Source: Bdellovibrionales bacterium (GTDB taxonomy: Bacteria > Bdellovibrionota > UBA1018 > JADZFF01). From it: 64,000 nt of DNA. The notes under the pieces were generated by a model that saw only the letters and a program-made list of their open reading frames with translations, was not told where the DNA came from and did not search any database. Shown piece by piece: positions 4,108 to 64,000 of the stretch; within the stretch, counting starts at the first letter, position 1; each line of letters opens with the position of its first letter. A program made the position numbers and the translations under genes. The DNA lies in contig JADZFF010000042.1 of the NCBI GenBank assembly GCA_020850015.1, positions 890 to 64,889 of the forward strand, in the 5' to 3' direction.

Positions 4108-4152
4108 GACGCTCAATACCCCGGGCAACCGGAAAAGGCCATTGCAGGGGCT

Positions 4153-9393: not shown

Positions 9394-9449
9394 TCCTTCT
9401 AGGATAGTCGAGGGGGTGGTCGGCGAAAAGTTGTCAATATCAGTCGGGA

Positions 9450-17029: not shown

Positions 17030-17174
17030 AGGAACGCAGGGAGTACCCGGCGGGAGCGCGCCCAGGCAAGTGCGAAGGCCGCATGCTGCAACGCGCATTC
17101 GCGGACTGGGCACTGCGTCGGGCGACGCGGTGCCGCCCGGCAAGGCCTGCCGACTCGACGCATAGGGCCGGACC

Positions 17175-46795: not shown

Positions 46796-47746
46796 TCAGG
46801 CACCGTACAGTTCAAGGAAGTCGCGCCGCAAGGCCGGCAGCTCCGACTCCAGAAGGTACCCCCGGCTGACTGGGTCGGGAAGCCTGGCCCGCAAGTTCTT
46901 GAACCAGGTGCGTTGGCGTTTCACGAGCTGCCGGGTGGCGAGGTCGATCTCGTCGCCCAGGCCCGCGATCCCGGCGCGGATCTTTCGCCCCTCGGGCGGG
47001 CGTCCTGCCAGAAAATCGGCCGTCTGGGCGTATCCAACGGCGTGAAGTGCCCTCGCCCCGGGAAAACGCGCGATCAGGGACTGCGTTTCATCCAGGATGC
47101 CGTCGCGGATCATCTGCTCGGTGCGGAGCCGGATCCGGTCGCGCAGCTCCGTTTCGGGACGATCAATCACCCAGAGGCGGAGTCCTTCCACGGGCTTCGA
47201 AGGCATCTCAGCCTCGAGGGCCGAGGGTGTGCGGCCCGTCTGGTGGAGGATCTCCAGCGCTCGAACCAGGCGGTAGCGATCTCGGGCCGAGATTCGAAGC
47301 GCCGACCGTGGGTCGACCTCGTTCAGGCGCGCGTGCAGCTGCCCCGCCGGAATCGAGTCGAGTGAAGCACGGAATGCCGCATCGGGCTTTCCCGCAGCCC
47401 AGGTTCCGAAGAGAAGCGCTTTCAGATAGAAGCCGGTCCCGCCCACGATCAGCGCGCGCTTTCCCTCGGAATGAAGCTCTTCGAGCTTTTCGGCCACGGC
47501 CGCGACGAAATCGCCCGCCGTGAAGGGTTGATCGGGGTCGCGGAGGTCCAGGAGGTGGTGGGACACTCGGGCGCGTTCCTCGGCCGAGGGTTTGGCCGCG
47601 CCGACGTTCATCCCCCGGTAGACGGACACGCTGTCGGCGTTGAGGATCTCGATCCCGCGGCCCTGGGCAAGCTCCACGGCCAAGGCCGTCTTGCCCGAGC
47701 TGGTTGGGCCCGTGAGGATCGCAACAGCGGGTGAAACGCGCCTCAT
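46796..47746 (-). CDS. miaA: tRNA dimethylallyltransferase
   Basis: AILTGPTSSGKTALAVELA...ILNADSVSVYRGMNVGAAKP. Start set at the ATG of the TGATG junction with the mutL stop (M8 of ORF 46796..47767). Confidence 0.9.
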   Translation of the reverse strand: MRRVSPAVAILTGPTSSGKTALAVELAQGRGIEILNADSVSVYRGMNVGAAKPSAEERARVSHHLLDLRDPDQPFTAGDFVAAVAEKLEELHSEGKRALIVGGTGFYLKALLFGTWAAGKPDAAFRASLDSIPAGQLHARLNEVDPRSALRISARDRYRLVRALEILHQTGRTPSALEAEMPSKPVEGLRLWVIDRPETELRDRIRLRTEQMIRDGILDETQSLIARFPGARALHAVGYAQTADFLAGRPPEGRKIRAGIAGLGDEIDLATRQLVKRQRTWFKNLRARLPDPVSRGYLLESELPALRRDFLELYGA

Positions 47747-49584
47747 CACACGCGCCGCTGGAACCATTCCTCAAGTCGCGTCGCCGGCACGCGCACGACG
47801 GTTGGCCGCCCGTGCGGGCAGTTCCAGGGATGCTCGCAGGCGAAGAGCCGGTCCACTAGCCCTCGGGCTTCGGCGGGCTCAAGCCGGTCGCCCGCGCGGC
47901 GGGAGGAGTGGCAGGCCTCGGAGGCCAGCTTCTCGAAGAGGGCTTCGTCTAAAGTGAGCGCGCCTCCTGCGGGCGGGGTATCGGTGTCGAGCAAGCGTTC
48001 GGCCAGGTTGGCCAGGCGTGCGCGCAGGTTGGCGGATCCCCAGGCCGCGGGCACCGCGCGGAAGAGCAGGGTGTCCTCGCCGAATGTCTCCGCCTCGAAA
48101 CCCATGCGCTCGAGCCAGGGAAGGCGCTCGGTGAGGGCGGGCGCGTTTTCCCGGTTCACGCGGATGGCCTCCGGAATCAGCAGGTGCTGGCGTGAAGGCG
48201 CTTCGGTCCCGCCGAGAACCTGCCCGCGGAGCTCCTCGAAGCGGATGCGCTCGTGGGCGGCGTGCTGGTCCACGAGCCCCAGCTCCTCCCCGAGGTCGAA
48301 GAGCAGGTAGGTCTGGAAAAGCGAGCCCACGTATGGCGCGCCCTGCAGCGGATGCGCGGGCGGGAAGGGTGAGATCGTTGAGCGTGAATCGCCTTCCGGT
48401 TCCATACCTGCTTCGGACGCGAAAAACGGAGTCAACCCCAAGGGAAGCGGGCCCGGTGAAGAGGTCTGCGCACGCGGCGCGAAGGTAGGGGTCAGCGAAA
48501 ATGCGGGCGGGCCAGCGGGCGAAGAACCCGGAGCGTGCGCGGCGGCCCCTTCAAGGGCGAGCAGATCCTGGAAGAAGCGCGATACGGATCCGAACACGGC
48601 ACCCGAGTCGGCGAAGCGGATTTCGGTCTTCGCCGGGTGCACGTTCACGTCAAGAAGAGAGGGATCGACGTCGATCCACACCGCCACGGCGGGGTACTGG
48701 CCAGGAAGCAGCGCCTGCCGGAAAGCCGAAAGCACGGCTTGCTGGAGCATGCGGTCGCGCACGGCGCGGCCGTTAACGACCTGAATGAGGCGCCGCGCCT
48801 GCGGGCCGCTGAACCCTCGCAGCCAGACCGCGCGGATCTTCACGCCCGCGGAGCCGGCCTCCTGAGTTTTCGCTACGACGGGGTAGTTGCCGCCGTCGTC
48901 GAGCACGGCCCGCGCGCGGGCTTCGGCGTCTTGCGGGCGGAGCTGCACGATCGTCCGGTCGTCGCTCACCAGGCGGAACCCCACCTCAGGGCGCGCGATC
49001 GCCAGGCGTTCTATCCACTCTCGCACCTGCGAGACCTCGGCGCGGGGTGATTTCAGGAACTTCAGCCGCGCGGGAACCTGGACAAAGAGCGACTCCGCCC
49101 GGACGCGGGTGCCATGCGACGAGCCGAGGAAATGCCCGTAGGTGACCTTACTCGCAGGGGGAGCGAAATCGCGCTCGTCGGGATTCACCTCGTAGGCGTC
49201 TTCAGCGCCCCGAGGCCGACTCAGCACGTTCAGCCGCGCTACGGCCGCGATGCTCGGGAGCGCCTCGCCTCTGAACCCCAAGGTCGCAAGCGACTCCAAA
49301 TCCTCCACCGCGCGGATCTTGCTCGTGGCGTGGCGTTTCACGCAGAGCTCGAGGTCGTCGGGGCCCATGCCGTGCCCGTTATCGATCACCTCGATGATCC
49401 CGCGTCCGCCGTCCTCGAGCAGGACGGTGATTTCGGTGGCCCCGGCGTCGAGCGCGTTCTCGACAAGCTCCTTCACCACGCTCGCAGGGCGTTCCACGAC
49501 TTCGCCCGCGGCAATGCGCTCGGCGACGATCGGATCGAGCAAGCGAACGCGAGAAGAAGCAGTGTGTGCGCGGACCTCGGTCAT
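47746..49584 (-). CDS. mutL: DNA mismatch repair protein MutL
   Basis: IAAGEVVERPASVVKELVENALDAGATEI...IDNGHGM. 612 aa. Confidence 0.93.
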   Translation of the reverse strand: MTEVRAHTASSRVRLLDPIVAERIAAGEVVERPASVVKELVENALDAGATEITVLLEDGGRGIIEVIDNGHGMGPDDLELCVKRHATSKIRAVEDLESLATLGFRGEALPSIAAVARLNVLSRPRGAEDAYEVNPDERDFAPPASKVTYGHFLGSSHGTRVRAESLFVQVPARLKFLKSPRAEVSQVREWIERLAIARPEVGFRLVSDDRTIVQLRPQDAEARARAVLDDGGNYPVVAKTQEAGSAGVKIRAVWLRGFSGPQARRLIQVVNGRAVRDRMLQQAVLSAFRQALLPGQYPAVAVWIDVDPSLLDVNVHPAKTEIRFADSGAVFGSVSRFFQDLLALEGAAAHAPGSSPAGPPAFSLTPTFAPRAQTSSPGPLPLGLTPFFASEAGMEPEGDSRSTISPFPPAHPLQGAPYVGSLFQTYLLFDLGEELGLVDQHAAHERIRFEELRGQVLGGTEAPSRQHLLIPEAIRVNRENAPALTERLPWLERMGFEAETFGEDTLLFRAVPAAWGSANLRARLANLAERLLDTDTPPAGGALTLDEALFEKLASEACHSSRRAGDRLEPAEARGLVDRLFACEHPWNCPHGRPTVVRVPATRLEEWFQRRV

Positions 49585-49651: not shown

Positions 49652-50566
49652 TTAAGACGCGGCGCGAACTTGGTTGCGACCGCTCTGTTTGGCCTCGTAC
49701 AGGGCCTTGTCGGCGCGTTTCACGAGCGTGGCGGAGGACTCCACGTCCGAACTCAGCTCGGCCACGCCGATGCTGGTGGTTACAGGGATGCGTTTGCCCT
49801 CATAGATGAAGGCGTGGGCCTCGATGGCCGCGCGCACGCTCTCGGCGATCGTCTGGGCCTGGGTGGAGGCGGTGTTCGTGAGCAGGAGCACGAACTCCTC
49901 GCCGCCGTACCGGGCGAAGACGTCCTTCGGGCGCACGTGCTTGGACTTGATGATGGCCGTGAACTCCTTGAGCACGTGGTCGCCGGCGTCGTGTCCGAAG
50001 GTGTCGTTCGTTTTCTTGAAGTGGTCGATGTCGAAGAAGAGCAATGAAAAGTCCGTATGCAGGGCCTTCGCGCGCTTGAACTCGGCTTCCAGGGCCTCGA
50101 GCAGATAACCCTTGTTGTAGATCTTGGTCATCGGATCGAGAACGCGCTTGTCGGAAAGTTCGCCCTCCAGCAGCGTTTCGAGCGTTCCGGCCGGGAGGAA
50201 CTTGAAGATGGAGCTTCCCATCTTGATCATGTCTTCCTTGCCGAGCGTGATGGCCGCGTTCGCCTCGATCTTCTTGCCGTTGACCTGGGTACCGTTAGAC
50301 GAGTTCAGATCCGTCAGCACCACTGCGCCCGACTTCTTGACGAATTTGGCGTGCTTCTTAGAGATGCTTTGGTCGGCCACGCAGATGTCTGCGGTGGGAT
50401 CACGACCGATCGTCATTTCCGCTCGGCTGAGCTCGTACTTATGACCCTGGGGAGTCCCGCGCACGAGAATGAGACAGGCCTCGGCCTTGCTGGCTCTCTC
50501 CATCTCGCGGTTGATCGTTTGATCGCCGGAGAGAACGGTGGTCTTGTCGGAGTCTTCGGCCGCCAT
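49652..50566 (-). CDS. FHA domain - GGDEF diguanylate cyclase
   Basis: FHA (MTIGRDPTADICVADQSISKKHAKF...SSNGTQVNG). GGDEF (DIDHFKKTNDTFGHDAGD...RYGGEEFVLLL). Confidence 0.88.
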   Translation of the reverse strand: MAAEDSDKTTVLSGDQTINREMERASKAEACLILVRGTPQGHKYELSRAEMTIGRDPTADICVADQSISKKHAKFVKKSGAVVLTDLNSSNGTQVNGKKIEANAAITLGKEDMIKMGSSIFKFLPAGTLETLLEGELSDKRVLDPMTKIYNKGYLLEALEAEFKRAKALHTDFSLLFFDIDHFKKTNDTFGHDAGDHVLKEFTAIIKSKHVRPKDVFARYGGEEFVLLLTNTASTQAQTIAESVRAAIEAHAFIYEGKRIPVTTSIGVAELSSDVESSATLVKRADKALYEAKQSGRNQVRAAS

Positions 50567-53174: not shown

Positions 53175-55103
53175 GTGGAATTGTGGCAGGAATTCGGTGG
53201 ACAGCCCCCGATTCGCATTTTGATCAATTACTGGGAGCTCGCCCCCGACGATCTGCGCGCGCGGCTCGATGCGCTTCAGCGCGAGGGCTTTTCGCACGTC
53301 TCGTCTTTCGTTCCCTGGCAGGCTTTCGAGTCCGACATCTCCCACAAGCTGATGAAGTTCCTCCAGGCGGTATCGGAGCGCCGGCTGAGCCTCTCGCTTA
53401 TCCTGAGCCCTGACGTCGGTGTTCACGCGCTTCACTCGGGCGTGCCGCGCGATCTGGCGGCCTCCGAGGAGATCCACGCCCGGCGGGCGGGCTCGGGCCC
53501 CTGCGTCGTGGCGCTCGCGCCGCGCTGGCACGCGCTGCCGTCTCTCCACTCGGCTGAGTTCATGAAGCGCTACTGGGCTTTTCTCTCCCGATTCCTGGGG
53601 TTTCTCTCGGATCTGGATCGAAGCCAGAGCGGCGTGCTCCGCCGACTCAGCGTGAGCGTGACCGGAAGTTTCTGGAAGTATTATCGGTCGCCGGGCGGCG
53701 GCTCCTTCGACTCCGCCACGAACGCCGCGGGCGACGAGGGGAAATCCGGATCGGCCTCCTTCCTCAAGTATCTGAGCGAACAGTACTCACAGCGCGAGTT
53801 CGCCGATCCGGACGCTGCGGCCGCGCAACGGTGGAAGACGCAGTCTTTCGAGGACGTGAACCGGAGGCATTTCGCGCAGAGCGCGGAGGATCAGTTCCGC
53901 CGGCAGAGTGAGCAGATCCTGCTGCGGAAGTACCTGCCCGTGCCGCTTGAGCATCTTGAGCTCTACACGCCCGAGGCCGATCCCGCGTATCTCCACACTG
54001 CGGTTCTCCAGGCCGCGGCGGACGGCCGCGCTGAATTTACCCGGCTCTCCAAACTCGTCGATGCCTGCGCAACCCGCGAAACCGCCGTGGATCGCCGGGT
54101 GTGCCGCCCATGCGTGCAGTGGACGGGTTTCGGGGGGTTCCAGACCCTTTCCGATTCCGAACGGCAGTTTCTCCTGCTGAAGTCGCTCCTGCTCGTTGCG
54201 TCGCGCGGGGGGGCGGTATTCCTGGAGGATCGCGAGTGGCGGCGGCTTTCCCGTTCGTTCAGGAAACGCGCTGACCTGCTCGCCAGGAGGCTCGCCGAGG
54301 GTCGGCTGCGTTTGGGAGCGTCCGTGATCCAGGTCGTGCCGCACCTGTGGTCGCCTGCGGGAGGGCCCTGGAAGGAATGGAGCCGACTGCTCGGGCCCGA
54401 GGCGCGCCTTTGTTCATCCTTGGACGTGCTTCGCGCGCATCCGGAGACCAAACTCGTGGTTGTCGACCCTGCCCTCATCCTTCGGGCGGAACCGGCGCGG
54501 GAGCTCCTGGACTGGGCCGAAGCGGGAGGCGCCTTGGTCCTTCCGCAGGGACCGCTGGTCACGGAATCGGCAAGGGCCCAGATCTCCACCCGGCTGGGGG
54601 TCAAACAGGGCCGTGGACGGGCGATCGCCGGGCGCGGAGGGGCCTCTCGGCAGACCTACGAGCTGGGCGCCGGAAAGGTGCATTTCTACGATCCCCAGGC
54701 GACGGATTGGCGCGACTTCGCCGTGTCCTTGATTGAGGAGGCGGGGATCCGGCGGCGATGCCAGCTGGGCGACGGCCGCCTGCAGACGATCTCTCTCGAG
54801 TCCGAGTCGGGGCAGGGCCTCTTCATCATGAACGGGACCTCCCGCGCTCTCTCCACTGACATCCATTTCGCCGAGTCCGTGCGGGTCACCGATCTGGCGC
54901 TTTCCCTGACGGATTCGCCGAACCCGGGGGTGGTCGAGCCTGAGCAGGTTCCCCCGGTCGAGCCGGCCAGAAGGTTTTCGCTCGAGGTGCCGTCCTGCGG
55001 CGTGCTTCCCCTGAGCGTATTGAATTCGGGAACGGCCACCGCGGTGGTCGCGGTCTCGTCGGAGCTTCCGTCCCCGGAGGGCGAACATGCAGCACCGGTT
55101 TGA
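53175..55103 (+). CDS. hypothetical cytoplasmic protein, 642 aa (loose GH42-like TIM-barrel + trimerisation-domain layout)
   Basis: No signal peptide. N-terminus INYWELAPDDLRARLDALQREGFSHVSSFVPWQAFE, and mid-protein KLVVVDPALILRAEPARELLDWAEAGGALVL, are only pattern-level resemblances to GH42. Confidence 0.5.
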   Translation: MELWQEFGGQPPIRILINYWELAPDDLRARLDALQREGFSHVSSFVPWQAFESDISHKLMKFLQAVSERRLSLSLILSPDVGVHALHSGVPRDLAASEEIHARRAGSGPCVVALAPRWHALPSLHSAEFMKRYWAFLSRFLGFLSDLDRSQSGVLRRLSVSVTGSFWKYYRSPGGGSFDSATNAAGDEGKSGSASFLKYLSEQYSQREFADPDAAAAQRWKTQSFEDVNRRHFAQSAEDQFRRQSEQILLRKYLPVPLEHLELYTPEADPAYLHTAVLQAAADGRAEFTRLSKLVDACATRETAVDRRVCRPCVQWTGFGGFQTLSDSERQFLLLKSLLLVASRGGAVFLEDREWRRLSRSFRKRADLLARRLAEGRLRLGASVIQVVPHLWSPAGGPWKEWSRLLGPEARLCSSLDVLRAHPETKLVVVDPALILRAEPARELLDWAEAGGALVLPQGPLVTESARAQISTRLGVKQGRGRAIAGRGGASRQTYELGAGKVHFYDPQATDWRDFAVSLIEEAGIRRRCQLGDGRLQTISLESESGQGLFIMNGTSRALSTDIHFAESVRVTDLALSLTDSPNPGVVEPEQVPPVEPARRFSLEVPSCGVLPLSVLNSGTATAVVAVSSELPSPEGEHAAPV

Positions 55104-55842
55104 CTGGCGGGTGTACCAGGAGTTCCTCACGGTGGGCGCGCGCGGCGTGCCCCTGGCGGAAAACGCGGGTCCGGCCCTGTTCGTGGCGCGTGAGGGGGCG
55201 GTGATTTCAGGTTACTCGTCGGGCGAGGACACGGATGAGTGGCTTGGCACCTCCACCGAAGAACTCAGACTCCGTTACGCCCACCGGGAGCATCGCGTGG
55301 TGGAGGAGGCCGACCTGCAGAAGTGGATCCGTGAGGCACTGGCCAAGGACCACGTGGTGGATCAGGCGGAGTGCCTGCGCCGCCGGCTGGGAGCGGACCC
55401 GGGGGGCACCCAGCTTTCCCGGCCCGTGGCCTATCACCATTTCCTGCTCGACGGCCTTCAGGGCTGGTGGTCGCGCGTGCTGCCTTCGAACTACGGAATC
55501 TATCTCAGGCTGGAGCGTCCCCGGGGCGTGGAGGGCGCGCCGCGTGAGCTTTGCCTGGTCGTGCGCGGTGGGCGCCTCGAGAGCTTTCATTCCCCGGATC
55601 TGAGCGGCATGGCCCGCACGGACACGCGAGGGGATGAGGATCTGGTGCGGTACCTTTCTGAGAAGTACCTGGTGCCTTTTCAGGGTGCCGTCATTCCCGA
55701 GCGCGACTGGGAGGACTGGTCGAAGCTCGCCGAGCCCTGGAGGCTCGTGCTGATGGCCCTGCGTGCGCGCAGGGCACGCCTGGTTCCGTTCCGCTGGGGT
55801 TTGGCGGGCCTACTGGGCGCCCGAGCCTATTTCGGGCTCTGA
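55087..55842 (+). CDS. hypothetical protein, 251 aa, C-terminal hydrophobic helix
   Basis: 17-nt overlap with the upstream ORF suggests translational coupling. Tail is LVPFRWGLAGLLGARAYFGL. No motif recognised. Confidence 0.5.
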   Translation: MQHRFDWRVYQEFLTVGARGVPLAENAGPALFVAREGAVISGYSSGEDTDEWLGTSTEELRLRYAHREHRVVEEADLQKWIREALAKDHVVDQAECLRRRLGADPGGTQLSRPVAYHHFLLDGLQGWWSRVLPSNYGIYLRLERPRGVEGAPRELCLVVRGGRLESFHSPDLSGMARTDTRGDEDLVRYLSEKYLVPFQGAVIPERDWEDWSKLAEPWRLVLMALRARRARLVPFRWGLAGLLGARAYFGL

Positions 55843-55861: not shown

Positions 55862-55948
55862 TTACGCATGAGCGCGGCCCACGAGCATCAGCGACAAGAC
55901 GAGCAGGGACGAAAACATCAGCACCTGAAACACTCTCGACGTCAGCAT
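55862..55948 (-). CDS. candidate 28-aa hydrophobic micro-protein at the operon end
   Basis: Manual translation gives MLTSRVFQVLMFSSLLVLSLMLVGRAHA*. GGGGAG sits 11 nt upstream. Below the ORF-track cutoff; could be chance. Confidence 0.25.
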   Translation of the reverse strand: MLTSRVFQVLMFSSLLVLSLMLVGRAHA

Positions 55949-56032
55949 CGATCGCTCAGCTCCCCTAATACCCACTGATAAACGCGCCTTTCCATAGTGT
56001 AAGGGGGGCTTAACGCACCGCGCTAGTGTGTC

Positions 56033-57613
56033 TTATTGGACCTTCGTGCTCACGTCCTTGAACTTGTAGGGTGTGTGATAGCTGGAATAGATCTGTTTAT
56101 CCGCGAGGATGGGAAGTTCGGCCCCGAAGTAATGGTTGAAGACCACGCGGAGCTGATTCACCGGTGACCTCACCCGATCCATCAGGTGGGGGGGGGCATC
56201 CGGGGTGAAGTAGGCCTGGAAGTTGGGAAACCGAATCTTCTGTTGGTCCAGCAGGCTCATCCCCTCTTGCAGGTTCGGGCCGTGGTCGGAATGCAGGAGG
56301 ATCACCGGGGGCTCCGTCGATTCGGCGAGGATCCGGTCGATCGCCTCCGTGATCCGGTGGTTCATGAAGATGAGCTGGTCGAGGTATGCGTCCTTTTTCT
56401 CCCAAAGCTTCTTCTGGAACTCCATCTGGTTGGAGAGCGTCGCCTGCCTGAGAATCTTTCCTTCGCGGTTGAACAGGTAAGGGTGGTGAGGCTGCACGAA
56501 GTGCGCGACGACGAATTTCGGTCCCGGTTTCCCTCCCGAGTCCGCGAGGGTGTCGAGATGCGAGAGAACGCATCGCGCGAGATCCACGGAGGCCCGCGAT
56601 TGAAGCGCCTTCAGCCAGGTCATCTCCTGTAGGGTCCTCAGGAACTCGTCGTTGAGAAATCCCTGACGGCAGGACACCTGCTCGTCCGCGTAGACGTTGT
56701 GAAGCGTTGCGCCCCAGCTCGATTGAAAGTGGACGTATCGGTAGCCATGCGCCTTCAGGAACCGGGCCGCCGCATTGTTTCGCACGGCCTCGTAGATGGG
56801 GCGGTAGTCGCGCCCGTTGGCGGGAAGGGCGTTGCCCAGGGCCTCGGGGATGTAATCGTAGTTGAGGGAAGAAGCGAGCGAGAGCGCCGTCCAGTAGTAG
56901 TTGGAGACCGTGCGCTCGCCCACCGCAAACCCACGCCGCCTGAGCCCGTCCAGGAACGGGGAATTGTCGAACTTGTAAAGGCTCTTGAGCACGTCCGCGC
57001 GCGCATATCCGTCGAGTACGATGACGTAGATGTCCGGCCGGCGCGCGTTCCCCTCCGGGCTCTTTCCCGAGCGGGCGGCGGATTCGGGATTCGCCGGCTC
57101 GGTCGATGATCGTGCCCACGGGGAACCCACCACGAGCTGAATGCAGGTCACTCCCACGAGGAGCGCGGAAATCAGGTTGAGCGTGCGTCTGGCCCGGGCC
57201 GCCGAGCTCTCTTGGAGCAGGAAGCGAAGCGCGGCCGGAACGAGCACTGCGAGCGCAGCGAACACGAGCGTCGCATTCCGGTGGAGATTGAAGAAAGCGC
57301 GCTTGGCGTAACGGCCGTCTTCCCCGGTACGAGCGAGCCCCGAAATGGCTCGAAGCTCGAGCCAGGAGTGCACGGGGCCGTAGGCGTAAAACAGGAGCAC
57401 CAGAGCCAGCACCGCGATGCCGGCTCGATCCCAGTCTCCGAGAACGGCGCGAAGCAGGAGCACCAGGAAGATGGCTGCCGTGGCGGCGGAGGCCGCGGCG
57501 GCGAGGACCGAAGCGAGCGGCGCTTGTCCGGGATTCGTCGCTGCGAGGTAGAGGGCCGGATACAGCGCGAAAAGGCAGACGTAGTAAGGGATACGTCCGA
57601 GAGCCTGGTTCAT
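56033..57613 (-). CDS. polytopic LtaS/sulfatase (alkaline-phosphatase) superfamily transferase, paralog 2
   Basis: About 5 N-terminal TM helices, then PDIYVIVLDGYARADVL...SNYYWTALSL...VAHFVQPHHPY...LHSDHGP. ATGA overlap with paralog 1. Confidence 0.75.
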   Translation of the reverse strand: MNQALGRIPYYVCLFALYPALYLAATNPGQAPLASVLAAAASAATAAIFLVLLLRAVLGDWDRAGIAVLALVLLFYAYGPVHSWLELRAISGLARTGEDGRYAKRAFFNLHRNATLVFAALAVLVPAALRFLLQESSAARARRTLNLISALLVGVTCIQLVVGSPWARSSTEPANPESAARSGKSPEGNARRPDIYVIVLDGYARADVLKSLYKFDNSPFLDGLRRRGFAVGERTVSNYYWTALSLASSLNYDYIPEALGNALPANGRDYRPIYEAVRNNAAARFLKAHGYRYVHFQSSWGATLHNVYADEQVSCRQGFLNDEFLRTLQEMTWLKALQSRASVDLARCVLSHLDTLADSGGKPGPKFVVAHFVQPHHPYLFNREGKILRQATLSNQMEFQKKLWEKKDAYLDQLIFMNHRITEAIDRILAESTEPPVILLHSDHGPNLQEGMSLLDQQKIRFPNFQAYFTPDAPPHLMDRVRSPVNQLRVVFNHYFGAELPILADKQIYSSYHTPYKFKDVSTKVQ

Positions 57614-59205
57614 TTCCCTGCAACCCTCGGGACTGAGGCGCCACCGGGCACCTCAAACTCCTCAAACAGGAAGGGCGTAGAATAGGCCGAGCGGAAATAC
57701 CGATCGGGGAGAAGTGGAATGCCCGCATTGAAAAGGTGATTGAAGAGACGCCTGAACTGATTCACCGGTGAGGCGCCCTCGGGATAGAGGTCGGGAGCGC
57801 CTGGCACATGAGCCGCGAAAAGCGTGGAGTGCCGCACATGGTCTTTTTTCGCTCTACCCAGTCCTTTCTCGAGGGCTGGACCGTGGTCTGACTGCACGAA
57901 GATCACGGGCGGCCTTGGAGAGTTCGCGAGAATCGACCGTACAGCATCGAGTACTCGACGGTCGCCGTACTTTAGTTGCTCGAGGTAGGGGTTTCGTTCC
58001 TCCCAGAGGCGCGTCTGGAGGGCGAACTGGCTAGCTAGCGTCGTTACTTGCTGTACCTGCCCTTTCGCGTTGAAGAGGTAAGGTGGATGCGGCGGAACAA
58101 AATGGGCCACGACGAACTTCGGCCCGGGTCTCTCGCCTTGGGAAGCGAGAGAGTCGAAATTCTGGTTGTGGCAGTTCGCGATATCCAAGCCCATCCCGGG
58201 ACTCAGGAGCCGAAGCCAGGTCTCTTCGGAGACGGCCCGATAGAAATCGTCCTGGAAGGCGCCCTCATGGCAGCGTACCAGCTCGTCGGCATGGGGATTG
58301 ATGCGCGTGGCGCCCCAGGTCGTCGCGAAATGAACAAAGCGATAGCCCCTCTTCTTGAGGAAGCGTGAGGCCGCGTTGTTCCGCAGGAGTTGGTAGGCCG
58401 CCGAGCGGGATCGGCTCGCGGTGTTGGCGTACTCGGGGAGCAGAGCCTGCAGGTAATCGTAATTCAACGTGGAGGACAGGGAAAGATAGGTCCAGGAGTA
58501 GTTCGAGGTGCTTGCCGGGTTCACCCGAAAACCGATTTCACTCAATTCGCCGAGAAAGCTGGTGTCCTCGTATCCGTAGTACTCCCTGAGAACGTCGGCC
58601 CGCGCGTGGCCGTCGAGAACGATGAAGTAGATGTCGGGTTGGTAGCCCAAGGGGGTGCTCGAGGCATCGCCACCAGCGGCCGCTTCAGCAGCCGACGTCA
58701 TGGTTCCTTCCTCGGCTCCTGAGAAGGCCGCCTGGGCGCCGACCATCGCGAGCAGGAGGATCGCCATGCCGTTGAGGCTCAGCGTGGCCGCCACGACGCT
58801 GTCCTCCCGCGTCTTCCGGGCCTGCCGGAGCGCGAGGGCGATCCCGACGACACCCGCCCCAACGAGGATCGGGCTTCGGTAAGTGAGGAGGTTTCCAATA
58901 TGCACCCAGATCCCCATCTTTCCGGCGAAGTGGTCGAGCTTCAACGCGGTGAAAAAATCCAGGAGCGGGCCGTATGAAAAAAAGGCGACCACGACCGCGC
59001 CGACTCCAAACGCAGCGCGCCGCCAGCCCCCGGCGAGGGGCCGAAACGCGGCCAGGATCAACAAAGCCGAGAGCAAGGCGATGCCCGTGGCCACGGCGAC
59101 GCTGGGCGCGGGGGCCTGCCCCGGATTTCCGGCCGCCATGTAGAGCACGGGGTAGGCCGCAAGCAGCCCGGCGTGGAAGGGGTAACGCGAGAGAAAGGCT
59201 TTCAT
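57610..59205 (-). CDS. polytopic LtaS/sulfatase (alkaline-phosphatase) superfamily transferase, paralog 1
   Basis: PDIYFIVLDGHARADVL...SNYSWTYLSL...VAHFVPPHPPY...VQSDHGP. Start is M41 of ORF 57610..59325. ATGA overlap with the TagF-like stop. Confidence 0.75.
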   Translation of the reverse strand: MKAFLSRYPFHAGLLAAYPVLYMAAGNPGQAPAPSVAVATGIALLSALLILAAFRPLAGGWRRAAFGVGAVVVAFFSYGPLLDFFTALKLDHFAGKMGIWVHIGNLLTYRSPILVGAGVVGIALALRQARKTREDSVVAATLSLNGMAILLLAMVGAQAAFSGAEEGTMTSAAEAAAGGDASSTPLGYQPDIYFIVLDGHARADVLREYYGYEDTSFLGELSEIGFRVNPASTSNYSWTYLSLSSTLNYDYLQALLPEYANTASRSRSAAYQLLRNNAASRFLKKRGYRFVHFATTWGATRINPHADELVRCHEGAFQDDFYRAVSEETWLRLLSPGMGLDIANCHNQNFDSLASQGERPGPKFVVAHFVPPHPPYLFNAKGQVQQVTTLASQFALQTRLWEERNPYLEQLKYGDRRVLDAVRSILANSPRPPVIFVQSDHGPALEKGLGRAKKDHVRHSTLFAAHVPGAPDLYPEGASPVNQFRRLFNHLFNAGIPLLPDRYFRSAYSTPFLFEEFEVPGGASVPRVAGK

Positions 59206-60434
59206 GCTGTGGCTCCGGCGGCGGCTCCGCGCTGGGATTGGGAACGCGGGCTTCTCGACTCCTCGATCTGCCGCACGACCTCGTCGGCTCCAGCGCGGCC
59301 GCTCCGGCCCACGTGGTAGATCCAACGTTCGCGCGCGGCTCGCAGCGCCTCCACGAATCGCGCGTGATCACGCGTGAGTTGGCCGATCTTTTCCCCGGCC
59401 AGATGAAGGTCGGAGGGCTCCAGTACGTCGCCGATCTCCTTGCGGATGGAGTGTTCCAGTGGGGTGAGCCCAACCCTTTCCCAGTGCGCGTTGTTCACCT
59501 TGGGTGGCGTGTTCACGAAAAGAACGGGGCGTTCGAGGCCGAAGGCGAAGTCGAAGGATGCGCCCGACCAGTCGCTGATCATCACGTCCGCATGGGCGAG
59601 GGAATCCTGCTCGGACATGTCGGTGATCACCCGAAAGCGCCCCCCGGCTCCATACGAGGCGGCAAGCTTCCCCGCCAGCGTGGGGTGGTGGCGGACGGTC
59701 ATGGGGTGCAGTCGGAGGTCGACGGTGTGCCCGGCCTCGAGGAGTGCCCGGATCAGGGGTTCGCCCCAGGAGCCCTCGATGATCGACCCCGTGCCCCAGG
59801 AGGGCGCGAGCACGACGCGTTTGGTTTTCGTTTCCGTAGGACGATACTGCTCGCGGGTTGCGCGTTGGCGCTCAAGCAAGGCGTCGAGCCTACCGTAACC
59901 ATGATCGACGAGTTGCTTGGGCTTCAGCCCATAAGCCTGCTCGGTTTTCCGAATCTCAGCGGTGTGGTGCGGGCCAACACAGAGGATGGTGTCGTAGTGA
60001 TCAAACGCGCCCTCACGGTACACGCGATGACTGCTATTGATGGAATGGAAGAGATACACGTAGCGCACGGGTTTCACCGAGCGCTTGAGCTGATACTTCT
60101 CGAGGTCCGGTAGGGTGAGCAGGCAGACTCGACAGTCCAATCCACGGAATGCGAGCGTGCGCGCGGTTCCCGAGCCGATGTACAGCGGTCGCAGAAGCGC
60201 CTGGAGCTCCGGGGTCAGGCGTTCGCCGCGGAGCACGGGGTCGTGGTCATCTGAGGTGAGATAGACCATGCGCTGGCCGTGGCTCGCCGCCAGCTCGCGG
60301 AGCACGGGCTCGAGGTGAGGCCAGTCGCCAGGGCCTTCGGCGTAGACGACGAGCTCGCGTTCGGCGGCGCCCAGACGGCCGAGCTCGGAAAGGCTCCGCC
60401 ACTCGGCGGAGAGTCGGCGGAAGAAGGACAGCAT
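59202..60434 (-). CDS. CDP-glycerol glycerophosphotransferase (TagB/TagF) family protein
   Basis: VVLAPSWGTGS (like the APTWR motif), LRLHPMT, HADVMISDWSGASFDFAFGLERPVLFV (like ITDYSS-FDF). Start is M73 of ORF 59202..60650. Confidence 0.7.
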   Translation of the reverse strand: MLSFFRRLSAEWRSLSELGRLGAAERELVVYAEGPGDWPHLEPVLRELAASHGQRMVYLTSDDHDPVLRGERLTPELQALLRPLYIGSGTARTLAFRGLDCRVCLLTLPDLEKYQLKRSVKPVRYVYLFHSINSSHRVYREGAFDHYDTILCVGPHHTAEIRKTEQAYGLKPKQLVDHGYGRLDALLERQRATREQYRPTETKTKRVVLAPSWGTGSIIEGSWGEPLIRALLEAGHTVDLRLHPMTVRHHPTLAGKLAASYGAGGRFRVITDMSEQDSLAHADVMISDWSGASFDFAFGLERPVLFVNTPPKVNNAHWERVGLTPLEHSIRKEIGDVLEPSDLHLAGEKIGQLTRDHARFVEALRAARERWIYHVGRSGRAGADEVVRQIEESRSPRSQSQRGAAAGATA

Positions 60435-60442
60435 CGCGGAGG

Positions 60443-60682
60443 TCAGGGCTTGGGGGGTTCCACCGGCGACTTCGCGGGCTTTCTGCCCACGATTCGAAGC
60501 GCCAAGTCGCGGACACGAGTGAATCCGCTGCGGAAGAACATGAACCCGCCGGCAATGGCGGCGACTATCACCTGAATGGCCATGCCCATGGTGCCCGGAT
60601 CCAGATAGGCATGGGCATCCGAAGGGATCATCAGGGTAAGGCCGGCCCAAAGTCCAAGTGCAAGAGTCAGGAAATGCCGCAT
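60443..60682 (-). CDS. small membrane protein (79 aa) with AYLDPGT motif
   Basis: MRHFLTLALGLWAGLTLMIPSDAHAYLDPGTMGMAIQVIVAAIAGGFMFF plus a basic tail. GAGGAG upstream. Start is M22 of ORF 60443..60745. Confidence 0.55.
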   Translation of the reverse strand: MRHFLTLALGLWAGLTLMIPSDAHAYLDPGTMGMAIQVIVAAIAGGFMFFRSGFTRVRDLALRIVGRKPAKSPVEPPKP

Positions 60683-60749
60683 TAAGGTGTCTCTCCTCGG
60701 GATTTTTCTCACAGAATTCTTACGAATAATCCCCGCGTTCGGCAAGCGC

Positions 60750-61907
60750 CTAGGCGTCCGATATGCGGTTCCAGGCCCGAACCAGGAGCTCGCGGGCGGC
60801 CTCTTCAGCGATAGGGGTCAGGTTATTCGGCGCCCTGCCCGGGTGGATCAAGGTGCCTGGGACGTTGCGCAGGGGCTCGGGAGAATGGAGGTGCTTCCGT
60901 AGGAGGGGTTTCAGGTTCAACTCCGCGAAGAATTCGTAAATACGGCGTACGCCGCTCTCGACGCCGTCGGCCCCAAGCGCAGCAAGCACCGGTGCCACGG
61001 CTTCAGATCCGTTGGCTCCATTCCAGGCCAGCACTTCGGCGAGGGTGAAGCCGCACGCGAGCCCGTGGGGCAGACCGAGCGAAGCTGTCAGAGGGTAAGA
61101 CATTGAATGCGCCAACGCCGTGCGGGTGCCGCTGATAGCCAACCCCGCCAGCACGGCCGCCTCCTGCACGCCCACTCGCGCTCCGAGGTCCTGGGGATGA
61201 ATCATCGCTCGCGGCAGGAAAACGAGCAGACTCCTTGCGGCCCGTGAGGCCAGGGCCTCCGAGACCGGGTTCCGGTTGCGGTTCCAGAGCGACTCCAATG
61301 CGTGCGAAAAGGCATCGAGCCCGGTCAACACGGTGAGATCAGGGGGCAGCGTGAGCGTGAGTTCGGGGTCGATGAGGGCATCCGTGGGGAATAGACGGTC
61401 GTGTGTCAGCGAGTGCTTGGCGCCGGTCCTCTCGTCCCACACGGTGGCAAAAGGGGTGACCTCGGCTCCGGTCCCCGCGGTGGTTGGGACGGCAATGATT
61501 GGCAACGGCGAGAATCCGACAGGGTAGGGGATGGACTGTCTCAGGTGATCAGAGACCCACTTGGGCCCAGTCTGCCCGGAGGCGCAGAGGGCGGCGGCTA
61601 CTCCCTTCGCGGTATCGATCGTACTTCCTCCGCCGATCGCCACCAGCAACTCGGGGCGGGAGGGAAGGATCTCCAGGGCGGCCTCCTGAATCGAGGCCAC
61701 CGTGGGATTCGAAATCACTCCCCGGTGCACGGCCACAAGACCAGTACCGAGGAGGCCCCGCACCCGCGCCTCGAGCCCGCGCTCGAGCGAGCCCCGAGTG
61801 CCGAGGAGCGCCGCCCGCTTCCCCCCGGCGCGTAAAGGCAGCCCGCCGAGGCTGCCCGCGCCCATCCAGAGCCGGACGGGATTAAAAAAGGCCGCAGGCT
61901 CGGTCAT
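60750..61907 (-). CDS. iron-containing (group III) alcohol dehydrogenase, candidate phosphonoacetaldehyde reductase
   Basis: LVAIGGGSTIDTAKGVAA...AVPTTAGTGAEVTPFA...LAHSMSYPL. Start is M40 of ORF 60750..62024. The functional call comes from gene context only. Confidence 0.7.
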   Translation of the reverse strand: MTEPAAFFNPVRLWMGAGSLGGLPLRAGGKRAALLGTRGSLERGLEARVRGLLGTGLVAVHRGVISNPTVASIQEAALEILPSRPELLVAIGGGSTIDTAKGVAAALCASGQTGPKWVSDHLRQSIPYPVGFSPLPIIAVPTTAGTGAEVTPFATVWDERTGAKHSLTHDRLFPTDALIDPELTLTLPPDLTVLTGLDAFSHALESLWNRNRNPVSEALASRAARSLLVFLPRAMIHPQDLGARVGVQEAAVLAGLAISGTRTALAHSMSYPLTASLGLPHGLACGFTLAEVLAWNGANGSEAVAPVLAALGADGVESGVRRIYEFFAELNLKPLLRKHLHSPEPLRNVPGTLIHPGRAPNNLTPIAEEAARELLVRAWNRISDA

Positions 61908-62604
61908 AATCCGCCTGGGTGTCGATCTCAGCCCAAGGTTTTCCATCGGTCGGTACGAGCCGGAAGCTGTGTCCGGCCCTGGCCATGCGGGTGAAGGCCT
62001 CGGTGTCATAGGCCTGGAAATCACGATCCCACAATACCTGCTCCAGGCTCTGGAAGAGCGCCTGAGTGATGCCGCCAGAGAACGCCGCGATTCCCACCCA
62101 CTCTCCCGCGGATCGAGGAGCCGGAATCTGCTTGCTCGATGCGATCAGCCTTCGATCCGCCGTGGCTTCGACCTTCATTGCCTCTTCGTCGGTTGCCCCG
62201 AAGTCGGTGAGGAGCGCCGCCTCCGTCTGGGGCACGTCCATCATGGGGTCGAGGAGCCCGCCGTCGTAGGCCAGATCGCTGTGCAGGTAGAGGAACGGGC
62301 GGCCACCGACCCAGTGGCGGGCGCACCAGAGCGAACCTCCGTTGTTCATCTGCTCGTAAAAGGGGTTCGGCACGAACGTGACACCGGGCCCGGCAAGAGC
62401 CCGCTCCATCTGGTCGTGCCGGTAGCCTACGACGATCGCGAACTCCCGGATCCCGCGCTCCCTCAGGAGGCGCATCGACCGGCCAAGCAGGGTTTCATTC
62501 TTCAGGTCGAGAAGGCCCTTGGGTTTCTCGAGCGTGAGCGGATAAAGGCGCGACGAGCGGCCCGCGGCCACGATCACCGCGCGCTCGATCCGGTGTGCGC
62601 TCAT
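61882..62604 (-). CDS. LicC-like sugar/phospho(no)-head-group nucleotidyltransferase
   Basis: RAVIVAAGRSSRLYPLTLEKPKGLL...FAIVVGYRHDQM. ATGA overlap with the Ppd-like stop. Confidence 0.7.
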   Translation of the reverse strand: MSAHRIERAVIVAAGRSSRLYPLTLEKPKGLLDLKNETLLGRSMRLLRERGIREFAIVVGYRHDQMERALAGPGVTFVPNPFYEQMNNGGSLWCARHWVGGRPFLYLHSDLAYDGGLLDPMMDVPQTEAALLTDFGATDEEAMKVEATADRRLIASSKQIPAPRSAGEWVGIAAFSGGITQALFQSLEQVLWDRDFQAYDTEAFTRMARAGHSFRLVPTDGKPWAEIDTQADYDRACGLF

Positions 62605-63764
62605 TTCCCGGTCCACCACTGCGTGAATTGCTCCTTCACCTCTTTTGGGGTCACTGTTGGGCGTCCAAGCTTCGCGTCCGTCGAGATCCCCACCTTCGCG
62701 TGGATCAGGCAGGGGCCGCTCAGGTCTCTCGCTTTCTTCACGAGCTCCCGGAAATCGTCCAGCCGGTCCGTGCGCCAGGCCTGGGCATAGCCGCAGGCCG
62801 AGGCGGCCATCGCGAAATCGACGGTGGAGCTGACGGTCGGCTGGGCGCCCGTCGATTCGTGAGCTTCGTTGTCCAGGATGATGTGGAGAAAGTGTTTCGG
62901 TGCGTAGTGGCCGATGGTGGCGAGAGCCCCCAGCTTCATGAGCGCGGCGCCGTCACCATCGAGCACGGCGACGTGCCGCGTTCCGGAACCGCCCTCGTGC
63001 ATGCCCAGCCCGATGGCCGAGGCGCAACCCATCGAGCCCACGATGTAGAGCTGGCCCGGGCCGTGTCCGGCGGTGAAAAGCTCACGGCCGATCTTCCCGG
63101 TCGTGGCCACGAGAGCGCTATGGCCTCCGAGAAGCTCCTTCACGGCTCGGATGTAGTCGAGTCGCGGCGCCCATTGCGCGGGCTCGGTCGTGAACTTACC
63201 CTGGAGCCGCCCTTCCTCGTGCGCGTAGCGCGTGGTCCGTCGGGGCTGGGCGGCCAGCGGAAAGTCCTTCACCGAGCCCTTTTTCATGACGAGCGCAAAG
63301 GGAAGGCCGGTGGCGCGCATCGAGGCCTCGGCTCGCTCCAGCGCGGCGTCGCAGTCCGCCGGGTCCTGAGGGAAAGTCTCGTGCGGGATCCGCATCGTAT
63401 CCAGGAGCTGCTCGGTGATCTCGCCCATGAGCTCGTGCTGCGGCTCATCCGGCACCCCGGGTTCTCCCCGGTGGGTGGTGATGAGGAGCACCGGGGCCCG
63501 AAACGGGTGGTTCAAGGAGGTCAGCGGGTTCACCGTGTTCCCGAGGCCCGAGTTCTGGCAGATGATCACCGCCTTCCGGCCCACCATGGCTGACCCGGTG
63601 GCGATGCCGACGGCTTCGCCTTCGCTCGCCGCTCCGATGTAGCTGAGCTCAGGATTCTGGATGACGGAGTTGATGAAGGGCGTCAAATACGAGCAGGGCA
63701 CGCCTGTCCAAAGGGTGAAGCCGCGTTTGGAGGCGGGACGCAGAAAGTCTTCGGCATGAATCAT
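62601..63764 (-). CDS. TPP-dependent phosphonopyruvate decarboxylase-like enzyme (sulfopyruvate decarboxylase is the alternative)
   Basis: [64 protein letters not shown]; C-terminal TPP-binding half [12 protein letters not shown]...LDGDGA. Confidence 0.7.
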
Positions 63765-63875
63765 CGGGCGGGTCTCCTGAGGCGGGAGACTTTCATGGCG
63801 GGCGGGAGGCGGTCAAGGCCGCCGAGGCCCCGGCGTCCTTGCGGATCCGAGCGCCGATGGCGTAGGGTGGCCTCC

Positions 63876-64000
63876 ATGGGACAAGCAAATTCCAAGACGG
63901 TGTATGTGGGGATGAGCGCGGATCTGGTGCACCCGGGGCATCTCAACGTGATCCAGGAGGCGCGCAAGTACGGGGAGGTCGTGGTCGGACTCCTGACGGA
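63876..64000 (+). CDS. cytidylyltransferase-fold (HxGH) protein, N-terminal fragment truncated by the window end
   Basis: Manual translation gives [42 protein letters not shown]. TagD/ECT-type HxGH motif (HPGH). Confidence 0.6.

Follow-up and report, generated by a model that had tools for sequence, protein, structure and literature searches.

A predicted 2-hydroxyethylphosphonate operon with TagF-like and EptA-like transferases in a Bdellovibrionales genome

How does a phosphonate head group, once made and activated, reach the bacterial envelope? The question is raised by an operon at one end of a 64,000-nucleotide stretch of DNA, hereafter the window, from a Bdellovibrionales bacterium (GenBank assembly GCA_020850015.1, contig JADZFF010000042.1, positions 890 to 64,889 of the forward strand). 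Seven tightly packed open reading frames (ORFs) on its minus strand, at 56033–63764, combine enzymes predicted to form 2-hydroxyethylphosphonate (HEP) with a TagF-family transferase, two polytopic EptA-like proteins and a small membrane protein. For about 5% of bacterial genomes a phosphonate-decorated cell surface is predicted, nucleotidyl activation is predominant in phosphonate pathways, and the steps after formation of the carbon–phosphorus (C–P) bond were called 'enigmatic' in the 2019 paper on PntC (PMC6697681). In the literature that we searched, no transferase is described for either HEP or methylphosphonate. The operon belongs to phosphonate cell-surface tailoring, in its HEP branch, and as such is neither categorically new nor unique to this genome: genes for nucleotidyltransferases and for proteins of the sulfatase family have been reported before from HEP and methylphosphonate clusters (PMC9381506, PMC8942020, PMC6697681). 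The module formed by the TagF-like protein and the small YxDPG membrane protein is apparently uncharacterised, and together with the EptA-like enzymes it makes a candidate three-part machine for the missing phosphonyl transfer. We judge it fairly probable that at this locus HEP is made, activated with CTP and attached to the envelope via the TagF-like protein and the two EptA-like enzymes.

The seven ORFs are arranged as described in an initial annotation of the sequence, which had counted seven to eight genes; the seven stand, as do the overlaps and the gap between them. On the minus strand, ATGA start/stop overlaps are found at 62601–62604, 59202–59205 and 57610–57613, the ATG of the iron-dependent alcohol dehydrogenase (Fe-ADH, 61907) overlaps the stop of the nucleotidyltransferase (NTase, 61882) by 26 nt (61882–61907), and an 8-nt gap (60435–60442) separates the 79-residue ORF from the ATG of the TagF-like gene at 60434. 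Pfam and NCBIfam searches of each ORF agree with every family that the annotation had named. GTDB genomes and metagenomes were searched with the decarboxylase and with the TagF-like protein; the loci fetched are designated here by L numbers.

Synthesis and activation of the head group

The gene at 62601–63764 (minus strand) codes for a 387-residue phosphonopyruvate decarboxylase of the Ppd/AepY/Fom2 type. It scores 390.4 bits against the NCBIfam equivalog TIGR03297, above the cut-off of 312.5 bits, and its top matches in the PDB are the phosphonopyruvate decarboxylase subunits of entry 9iz3, which bears out the annotation as a Ppd-like thiamine pyrophosphate (TPP) decarboxylase. In the inspected loci L003, L004, L007 and L090, the Ppd genes that adjoin the phosphoenolpyruvate (PEP) mutase (PepM, also Ppm) are 48–61% identical to it. 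A ComDE sulfopyruvate decarboxylase was rejected, as the scores against the models of its alpha (ComD, 91 bits against a cut-off of 148) and beta subunits (ComE, 118 against 221) lie far below the cut-offs. In one locus with TagF-like and PepM-NTase genes (L306:13892–15081), Ppd is called as two ORFs, TPP_enzyme_N of 177 aa and TPP_enzyme_C of 142 aa, which may reflect a frameshift, a pseudogene or a truly split two-subunit Ppd like that of PDB 9iz3.

The gene at 60750–61907 (minus strand) codes for a 385-residue group III Fe-ADH of the PhpC/FomC kind (phosphonoacetaldehyde reductase). The group assignment was confirmed by PF00465 and PF25137 (ADH_Fe_C); the best NCBIfam model is TIGR03405 (Phn_Fe-ADH, 302.7 bits), though below its equivalog cut-off, and the next model follows at 156 bits, about 147 bits lower. 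The protein is 42–47% identical to the Fe-ADH encoded directly downstream of Ppd in L001–L012, and orthologs occupy the same position in L089 and L090. That it stands beside Ppd in so many loci speaks for a role of the PhpC/FomC type.

Between these two genes lies that of a 240-residue LicC/PntC-like NTase (61882–62604, minus strand; PF12804, 53 bits), the two top PDB matches of which are LicC (1jyk, E 6e-11) and the PntC domain of Tde1415 (6pd1, E 6.5e-10), in keeping with its annotation as a LicC-like enzyme of the PntC type. The order Ppd–NTase–Fe-ADH is kept in L313/L307, where the NTase is 52% identical, in L100 and in L007. A LicC-like PF12804 NTase beside Ppm/Ppd and cytidylyl activation before surface transfer are also features of the Pnt pathways of Treponema denticola (Tde1415) and Atopobium rimae, which place 2-aminoethylphosphonate (AEP) on surface glycans (PMC6697681). 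Unlike in the Pnt pathways, the head group would be HEP and not AEP, an Fe-ADH replacing the AEP transaminase, and the predicted transferase is of the TagF family, neither LicD-like nor a CDP-alcohol phosphatidyltransferase.

The operon diverges from a plus-strand gene that starts at 63876 and of which the window holds only the first 125 bases (41 codons, 63876–64000). This gene, already noted in the initial annotation, is real and begins as a cytidylyltransferase (CyTase): the 41-residue fragment carries an HPGH version of the HxGH motif and scores 33.5 bits against TIGR00125 (cut-off 27.7) and 20.3 bits against PF01467 (cut-off 21). It is 86% identical to the N-terminus of a PF01467+PF13714 fusion adjoining Ppd and Fe-ADH (L004:8656–9966). 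Degenerate DNA encoding a 14-residue motif of the fragment was used to scan, without bias, one genome for each GTDB species; of the 71 stop-complete ORFs obtained, 67 also contain the Ppm motif EDKxxxxxNS (about 429 aa counted from the 14-residue motif), and the CyTase-PepM ortholog in L090 passes the TIGR02320 PEP_mutase equivalog. A search of a big database with the 41-residue fragment retrieved only short fragments without domain context. Judged by these sequence matches, the gene at 63876 most probably codes for a Fom1-type fusion, of which the window shows the start of the CyTase domain that precedes the PEP mutase. Since 67 of the 71 ORFs with this motif also bear the Ppm signature, a PEP mutase most likely does lie next to the operon, a point that the initial annotation had left in doubt.

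The CyTase domain of Fom1 has been shown experimentally to be a HEP cytidylyltransferase, converting HEP to CMP-HEP, and among all Ppm proteins 23.6% have a CyTase domain of this kind fused to them (PMC6697681). The locus carries two NTases and not one, the Fom1-type PF01467 domain and the LicC-type enzyme. Its enzyme families are those of the early Streptomyces fosfomycin pathway, with Fom1 (CyTase-PepM), Fom2 (Ppd) and FomC (Fe-ADH) leading from PEP via phosphonopyruvate, phosphonoacetaldehyde and HEP to CMP-HEP (PMC6697681). Unlike that pathway, the operon has no Fom3, Fom4 or FomD gene, and CMP-HEP is proposed to serve as a donor instead of a transient handle.

HEP is most likely the head group of the operon, because no AEP-type transaminase, methylphosphonate synthase (MPnS)/HEPD or second PepM was found in the 64-kb window. 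The only aminotransferases among the scanned window genes are class I/II and class IV housekeeping types, 12–17 kb away, and an AEP pathway was rejected for this reason. The route put forward at the outset, in which Ppd yields phosphonoacetaldehyde, the Fe-ADH reduces it to HEP and the LicC-like enzyme forms a CMP-phosphonate, has come through with each of its family assignments intact; the product itself is predicted.

The predicted transfer module

The TagF-family protein (59202–60434, minus strand) has 410 residues and no predicted transmembrane (TM) segment, and is taken to be a soluble or peripheral GT-B transferase. It scores 44.9 bits against PF04464 (gathering score 22.1). Its AlphaFold2 (AF2) model has a predicted local distance difference test (pLDDT) score of 95.7, and the top PDB match of this model in Foldseek is TagF itself (3l7k, E 1e-12, probability 1.00, about 13% identity); both results uphold the annotated family. 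A single-sequence search of the PDB gave no match. The next Foldseek matches are Gram-negative TagF-like capsule polymerases (8qoy and 8a0m), so that a TagF-type enzyme in a diderm is not unprecedented in itself. In an alignment of the family profile with TarL, the APSW, R-x-HP and DWSG motifs are all covered: Arg241, His243, Pro244, Trp289, Ser290 and Gly291 are invariant, Asp288 nearly so, and they align with the KMHP and SDYSS motifs of TarL. The protein thus shares its GT-B fold, PF04464 and the R-x-H-P and D-(W/Y)-S motifs with TagF, TagB, TarL and the Gram-negative capsule polymerases. It differs from TagF and TarL by its low identity to TagF, by the lack of a TagD/TarI/TarJ supply and by the linkage of the window family to PepM or other head-group-making enzymes; indeed, Pfam and NCBIfam detect no TagD/TarIJ-type gene for CDP-glycerol or CDP-ribitol supply in the operon, apart from the PepM-fused CyTase. 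TagF enzymes normally use a CDP-activated alcohol phosphate and release CMP. We propose that the TagF-like protein is a CMP-phosphonate:acceptor phosphonyl transferase.

A gene for a YidC/Oxa1-type insertase (PF02096) repeatedly adjoins the TagF-like gene (L088:11147–12274, L305:13158–14846, L345:10510–12084). Many TagF-like homologs bear the JGI name 'YidC/Oxa1 family membrane protein insertase', which this adjacency, or fusions in some genomes, may explain.

The TagF-like gene is followed by those of two polytopic proteins of the alkaline-phosphatase superfamily, paralog A (57610–59205, minus strand, 531 aa, PF00884 with 34.6 bits) and paralog B (56033–57613, minus strand, 526 aa, 29.8 bits), which share 39–40% identity along their whole length. 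Paralog A has N-terminal TM helices with K/R-rich cytoplasmic loops, and the motifs IVLDGHARAD, NYSWT, HFVPPHPPY and SDHGP. Modelled with AF2 (pLDDT 89.3), paralog B shows helices 11–26, 33–58, 61–99, 110–132 and 135–163, followed by an alkaline-phosphatase-type α/β domain, with K/R-rich loops at 55–63 and 125–136. This distribution of K/R in the loops places the catalytic domain outside the cytoplasm (N-in/C-out). The C/S-x-P-x-R formylglycine motif is absent from both paralogs, which have an invariant Thr at the nucleophile position, and for these reasons true sulfatases were rejected. Asp201, Thr242, His371, His376, Asp443 and His444 of paralog B are invariant across 56 family sequences; we take Asp201, Thr242 and Asp443–His444 to correspond to Glu246, Thr285 and Asp465–His466 of MCR-1, the Asp standing where MCR-1 and EptA presumably have a metal-binding Glu.

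Single-sequence and sulfatase-like profile searches of the paralogs against PDB chains gave nothing significant. The top Foldseek matches of the paralog B model are full-length MCR-1 (9nww), EptC (6a82), ICR-Mc and EptA (5fgn), mixed with sulfatases, and no LtaS structure is among its 50 best fold matches. Hence, of the description as two paralogous LtaS/sulfatase-superfamily proteins, the PF00884 assignment and the paralogy hold, while the likeness to LtaS gives way to the nearer EptA/MCR-1/EptC folds. The fold of paralog B and the invariant residues suggest Thr-nucleophile head-group transferases of EptA/MCR-1 architecture, to which the paralogs appear closer than to LtaS or to sulfatases. 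Like EptA, MCR-1 and EptC, and more distantly LtaS, OpgB and BcsG, they join five N-terminal TM helices to an outward alkaline-phosphatase-superfamily domain. Unlike EptA and MCR-1, they have no detectable sequence similarity to PDB chains, they are accompanied by a dedicated small membrane protein and their proposed donor is a phosphonate-bearing lipid.

A sulfatase-like gene also occurs in a four-gene module (L101:9406–13306, L308:6359–10312, L309:6406–10311), together with genes for an abhydrolase_6 protein, a small protein of 82–86 aa, confirmed in L101 to carry AYIDPGTGS, and a methyltransferase-like protein of 426–471 aa. The module is flanked by aspS and mutS in contigs of gammaproteobacterial-type context, of which NCBI lists one as Gammaproteobacteria, and it includes no phosphonate gene such as PepM, nor a TagF-like gene.

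The third component is a small membrane protein of 79 residues (60443–60682, minus strand) with a signal-peptide-like N-terminus, an A-Y-L-D-P-G-T motif, a single TM helix (residues 32–50) and a basic C-terminal tail with 8 K/R. It matches no Pfam or NCBIfam model. Homologs of the same AYxDPG(T/S)GS–TM–basic tail design adjoin TagF-like and/or sulfatase-like genes in L087–L091, L098 and L101, and small ORFs of 61–86 aa occupy the equivalent position in L305 and L307–L309. What had been listed as a 79-residue membrane protein is therefore a genuine conserved gene.

Recurrence of the locus and its relatives

The initial annotation knew of no described system of this composition. The composition is not unique, for it recurs in metagenome-assembled genomes (MAGs) of many phyla; the module of TagF-like and small protein is without description in the searched literature. 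Nor does the searchable literature mention pepM or Ppd together with TagF, with PF04464 or with any glycerophosphotransferase, an earlier mention elsewhere being possible. A minimal operon of six genes (small protein, CyTase-PepM, Ppd, Fe-ADH, TagF-like and EptA-like) is present in an Actinomycetota MAG (L089) and in a Sedimentisphaerales MAG (L090). The closest full analogue found is a soil contig (L307/L313) that codes for a sulfatase-like protein, the small protein, a TagF-like protein, PepM-NTase, Ppd (57% identical), the NTase and Fe-ADH. Variants also occur in Acidobacteriota, Verrucomicrobiota, Planctomycetota, Chloroflexota, Myxococcota and Vulcanimicrobiota.

Among the 36 TagF-like loci for which each flank spans 3 kb or more, 18 contain PepM, and so do six of the seven that score best to the window. 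Ppm being found in only about 5% of genomes (PMC8942020), PepM is strongly enriched near TagF-like genes. Conversely, among 80 unbiased CyTase-PepM loci (8-kb stretches), 63 carry Ppd and 49 Fe-ADH, and only 6 a TagF-like gene, so that the TagF-like module marks a minority branch of HEP clusters. HEP-forming clusters amount to 8.5% of ppm neighbourhoods, and the isolated products of HEP type are only the methylphosphonate adduct of Nitrosopumilus maritimus and the HEP-exopolysaccharide of Stackebrandtia (PMC8942020). Glycosyltransferases, LicD-type phosphotransferases, adenylyl- or nucleotidyltransferases and 'arylsulfatase A' genes have been reported from pepM/aepY/phpC/mpnS neighbourhoods (PMC9381506), and clusters of Selenomonas in which several sulfatases occur have been assigned to a putative phosphonolipid class (PMC8942020).

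Some relatives appear to go beyond HEP. TagF-like orthologs 35–55% identical to that of the window occur in clusters with an MPnS-type cupin (L007:11843–13264; L003, about 8700–10004; L087:7615–8955, minus strand; L099, about 3749–5095; L306; L373; L381). The L007 cupin, which was the query for flagging MPnS in the survey of 36 TagF-like loci, matches MPnS of N. maritimus (6b9s) with 482 bits and HEPD (6b9r) with 301 bits, and the cupins of these loci have the Phe and Ile of MPnS (VNFY and YI[T/S/M]PF) where HEPD has Tyr and Gly. Such residues point to methylphosphonate ester synthesis in MAGs of Myxococcota, Chloroflexota, Planctomycetota and Vulcanimicrobiota. As methylphosphonate has no hydroxyl, the activity common to the TagF-like orthologs would most simply be a single phosphonyl transfer. 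With the methylphosphonate clusters of N. maritimus and of marine bacteria (PepM, Ppd, Pdh, MpnS) the operon shares the HEP-forming core, and its relatives the MPnS-type cupins. Unlike those clusters, the window contains no MPnS, and neither a TagF-like gene nor a YxDPG protein is mentioned for them in the searched literature. The module is thus tied genetically to HEP synthesis in many lineages, and to methylphosphonate synthesis in its Myxococcota, Chloroflexota and Planctomycetota relatives.

Several of the fetched loci depart from this scheme. In Limnocylindria (L081:2830–4926, also L001 and L082), an NTase match at 2830–3558 overlaps a long ORF with an MPnS-like part (3004–4926), which suggests either an NTase-MPnS fusion or overlapping genes. 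In a Verrucomicrobia locus without Fe-ADH (L305:4290–6344), the TagF-like, CyTase-PepM and Ppd genes stand directly beside a PfkB kinase, a HAD phosphatase and a PF01467 transferase of heptose type, together with glycosyltransferases; this hints at a phosphonate linked to the lipopolysaccharide (LPS) core, with a different head group. In about half of the TagF-like family, the gene stands apart from PepM in a different, recurrent set (L345:2342–13461, L325:4517–12278, L364:4447–10134), which comprises a sulfatase-like gene, a PPDK_N/PEP-utiliser of about 1020 aa with an NTase-like N-terminus, GATase/Peptidase_C26, a LicC-like NTase, and YidC-like, formyltransferase-like and methyltransferase genes. 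It looks like a separate, uncharacterised head-group system.

Proposed pathway, alternatives and genomic context

The reading that we favour can be laid out in six steps. The PEP mutase, in the C-terminal part of the protein encoded from 63876, would convert PEP to phosphonopyruvate, a step that is strongly indicated by the fusion partners of this N-terminus. Ppd would decarboxylate phosphonopyruvate to phosphonoacetaldehyde, pulling the equilibrium, and the Fe-ADH would reduce phosphonoacetaldehyde to HEP. The PepM-fused Fom1-type domain, the LicC/PntC-like enzyme or both would then convert HEP to CMP-HEP; for these last three steps the family assignments are those established above. The TagF-like protein, working on the inner side of the cytoplasmic membrane, would next load a membrane-bound lipid or lipid-linked glycan: the hydroxyethylphosphonyl group of CMP-HEP would pass to a hydroxyl of this acceptor, and CMP would be released. 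Lastly, the EptA-like pair and the small single-pass protein would take the head group off the lipid donor via a covalent Thr intermediate and hand it to the final envelope acceptors, which could be LPS core or lipid A, periplasmic glucans or exopolysaccharide. Parallels for this step are EptA (from phosphatidylethanolamine to lipid A), OpgB (from phosphatidylglycerol to glucans) and BcsG (from phosphatidylethanolamine to cellulose). For the two transfer steps, the substrates, order and acceptors are inferred from the mechanisms of the families and from the linkage that the genes conserve. Because the compact operons hold no glycosyltransferase, flippase or exporter, the carrier would be a general membrane lipid. 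The presence of two NTases and two EptA-like paralogs could possibly mean two acceptors, or a primase/extender pair.

If true, this scheme would provide testable enzymes for building methylphosphonate and HEP esters and would widen TagF chemistry from phosphodiester to phosphonate ester formation. Both aerobic methane in the sea and recalcitrant dissolved organic phosphorus have esters of methylphosphonate and HEP among their sources.

Several observations weigh against this scheme. The predicted PEP mutase domain itself lies beyond base 64000, outside the window. With 302.7 bits, the Fe-ADH is under the TIGR03405 equivalog cut-off of 423.7, and enzymes of PhpC type are reversible (PMC13576164). 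An MPnS or HEPD gene could sit downstream of PepM, past the window end, so that the head group would be a HEP derivative; this is possible but unlikely, since none of the 80 CyTase-PepM loci had one within the fetched 8-kb stretches. The operon itself has no flippase, transporter or glycosyltransferase. Half of the wider TagF-like family is away from PepM, and the closest sequence relatives of paralog B (45–49% identity) belong to the non-phosphonate four-gene module, which argues that the transfer module is not phosphonate-specific as a family. Judged by these sequence relationships, it would thus be a general device for bringing an activated head group to the envelope, with an interchangeable head-group supply.

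The alternative that survives best, and that we nevertheless regard as rather doubtful, has the TagF-like protein alone decorate a lipid-linked glycan in the cytoplasm, leaving to the EptA-like proteins an unrelated or loosely related task such as remodelling, or the transfer of phosphoethanolamine or phosphoglycerol from phospholipids. TagF-family enzymes (TagB/TagF and the capsule polymerases) do work on lipid-linked glycans, and 8qoy and 8a0m are among the fold matches; the closest relatives of paralog B occur without PepM or a TagF-like gene, and tblastn finds no sulfatase-like gene in the flanks of some PepM/TagF-like loci (L085, L093 and L313). However, the EptA-like gene is coupled translationally to the TagF-like gene by the ATGA at 59202–59205, and it belongs to compact six-gene operons of two unrelated phyla in which there is no glycosyltransferase or exporter.

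Two further proposals concern a polymer. In the wider of them, which we hold to be unlikely, the TagF-like protein would be a phosphonyl transferase that esterifies CMP-HEP, or methylphosphonate in the orthologs, to envelope lipids or glycans, and in HEP-only clusters it may polymerise HEP to poly(hydroxyethylphosphonate), a phosphatase-resistant C–P analogue of teichoic acid in a diderm, passed outward by the EptA-like enzymes and the small protein. The other, to which we give slightly less credence still, is that the TagF-like protein is first of all a polymerase making poly(2-hydroxyethylphosphonate), the C–P analogue of poly(glycerol phosphate) teichoic acid, with the EptA/LtaS-like paralogs as primase or ligase on the outside. 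TagF as best fold match, the free primary hydroxyl of HEP, the steric closeness of CMP-HEP to a CDP-activated alcohol phosphate and the lack in the window of an MPnS/HEPD that would remove this hydroxyl would all suit such a polymerase. Yet orthologs 48–55% identical reside in clusters with methylphosphonate synthase, the product of which has no hydroxyl to extend, no polymer export system is present, and 410 residues amount to the GT-B core only, the size of primases such as TagB.

A soluble small-molecule phosphonate made via transient cytidylylation, the membrane enzymes then serving self-resistance or export, is very improbable: CyTase-PepM, Ppd and Fe-ADH are indeed the first three fosfomycin enzymes (Fom1, Fom2 and FomC), and CMP-HEP is an intermediate there (PMC6697681), but neither the operon nor its relatives have radical-SAM methyltransferase, epoxidase, ATP-grasp, non-ribosomal peptide synthetase or other tailoring genes, three of the seven genes code for membrane proteins of envelope-modifying type and a fourth for a TagF-family transferase. 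That the locus is catabolic, with the Fe-ADH oxidising imported HEP to phosphonoacetaldehyde for phosphorus scavenging, as PhpC-type enzymes do in some bacteria, is hardly credible, for Ppd and the CyTase-PepM start adjoin it, scans of the window detect no PhnX, PhnA/PhnY, PhnW or phosphonate transporter, and reported catabolic clusters are by definition without pepM/aepY (PMC13576164).

The remainder of the window gives some context to the operon. Between Ppd and the CyTase-PepM gene lies a divergent intergenic region of 111 bp (63765–63875), presumed from the gene arrangement to be a bidirectional promoter; a sigma-70 consensus scan of this region gave no match, and neither did promoter and terminator consensus scans around both ends of the operon. 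The possible eighth gene of the initial annotation, a hypothetical hydrophobic ORF of 28 aa (MLTSRVFQVLMFSSLLVLSLMLVGRAHA, 55862–55948, minus strand, GC3 0.79), is listed here only because it had been named there: none of the fetched loci contains a homolog, the sequence does not continue into anything like the YxDPG family, and its membership of the operon is unproven. Two overlapping plus-strand genes converge on the operon end, at 53175–55103, with a weak DUF4350 match below threshold, and at 55087–55842, with no family match.

The LPS heptose genes noted earlier stand at the Pfam level, as a GT9 heptosyltransferase (41455–42552) and a PfkB kinase (42549–43574). The threonyl-tRNA synthetase of the window (33408–35207, minus strand) has only 62% identity to the best GTDB match listed, from an Oligoflexia MAG, which argues for a poorly sampled, deep-branching lineage; among the matches listed, those from Acidobacteriota and 'delta proteobacterium' MAGs have 55–57%. 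The host is uncultured, high in GC and probably a diderm. The window also codes for MutS (14279–17227), MutL (47746–49584), an FHA-GGDEF protein (49652–50566) and a HAMP-adenylate cyclase-HEAT repeat protein (22223–25162).

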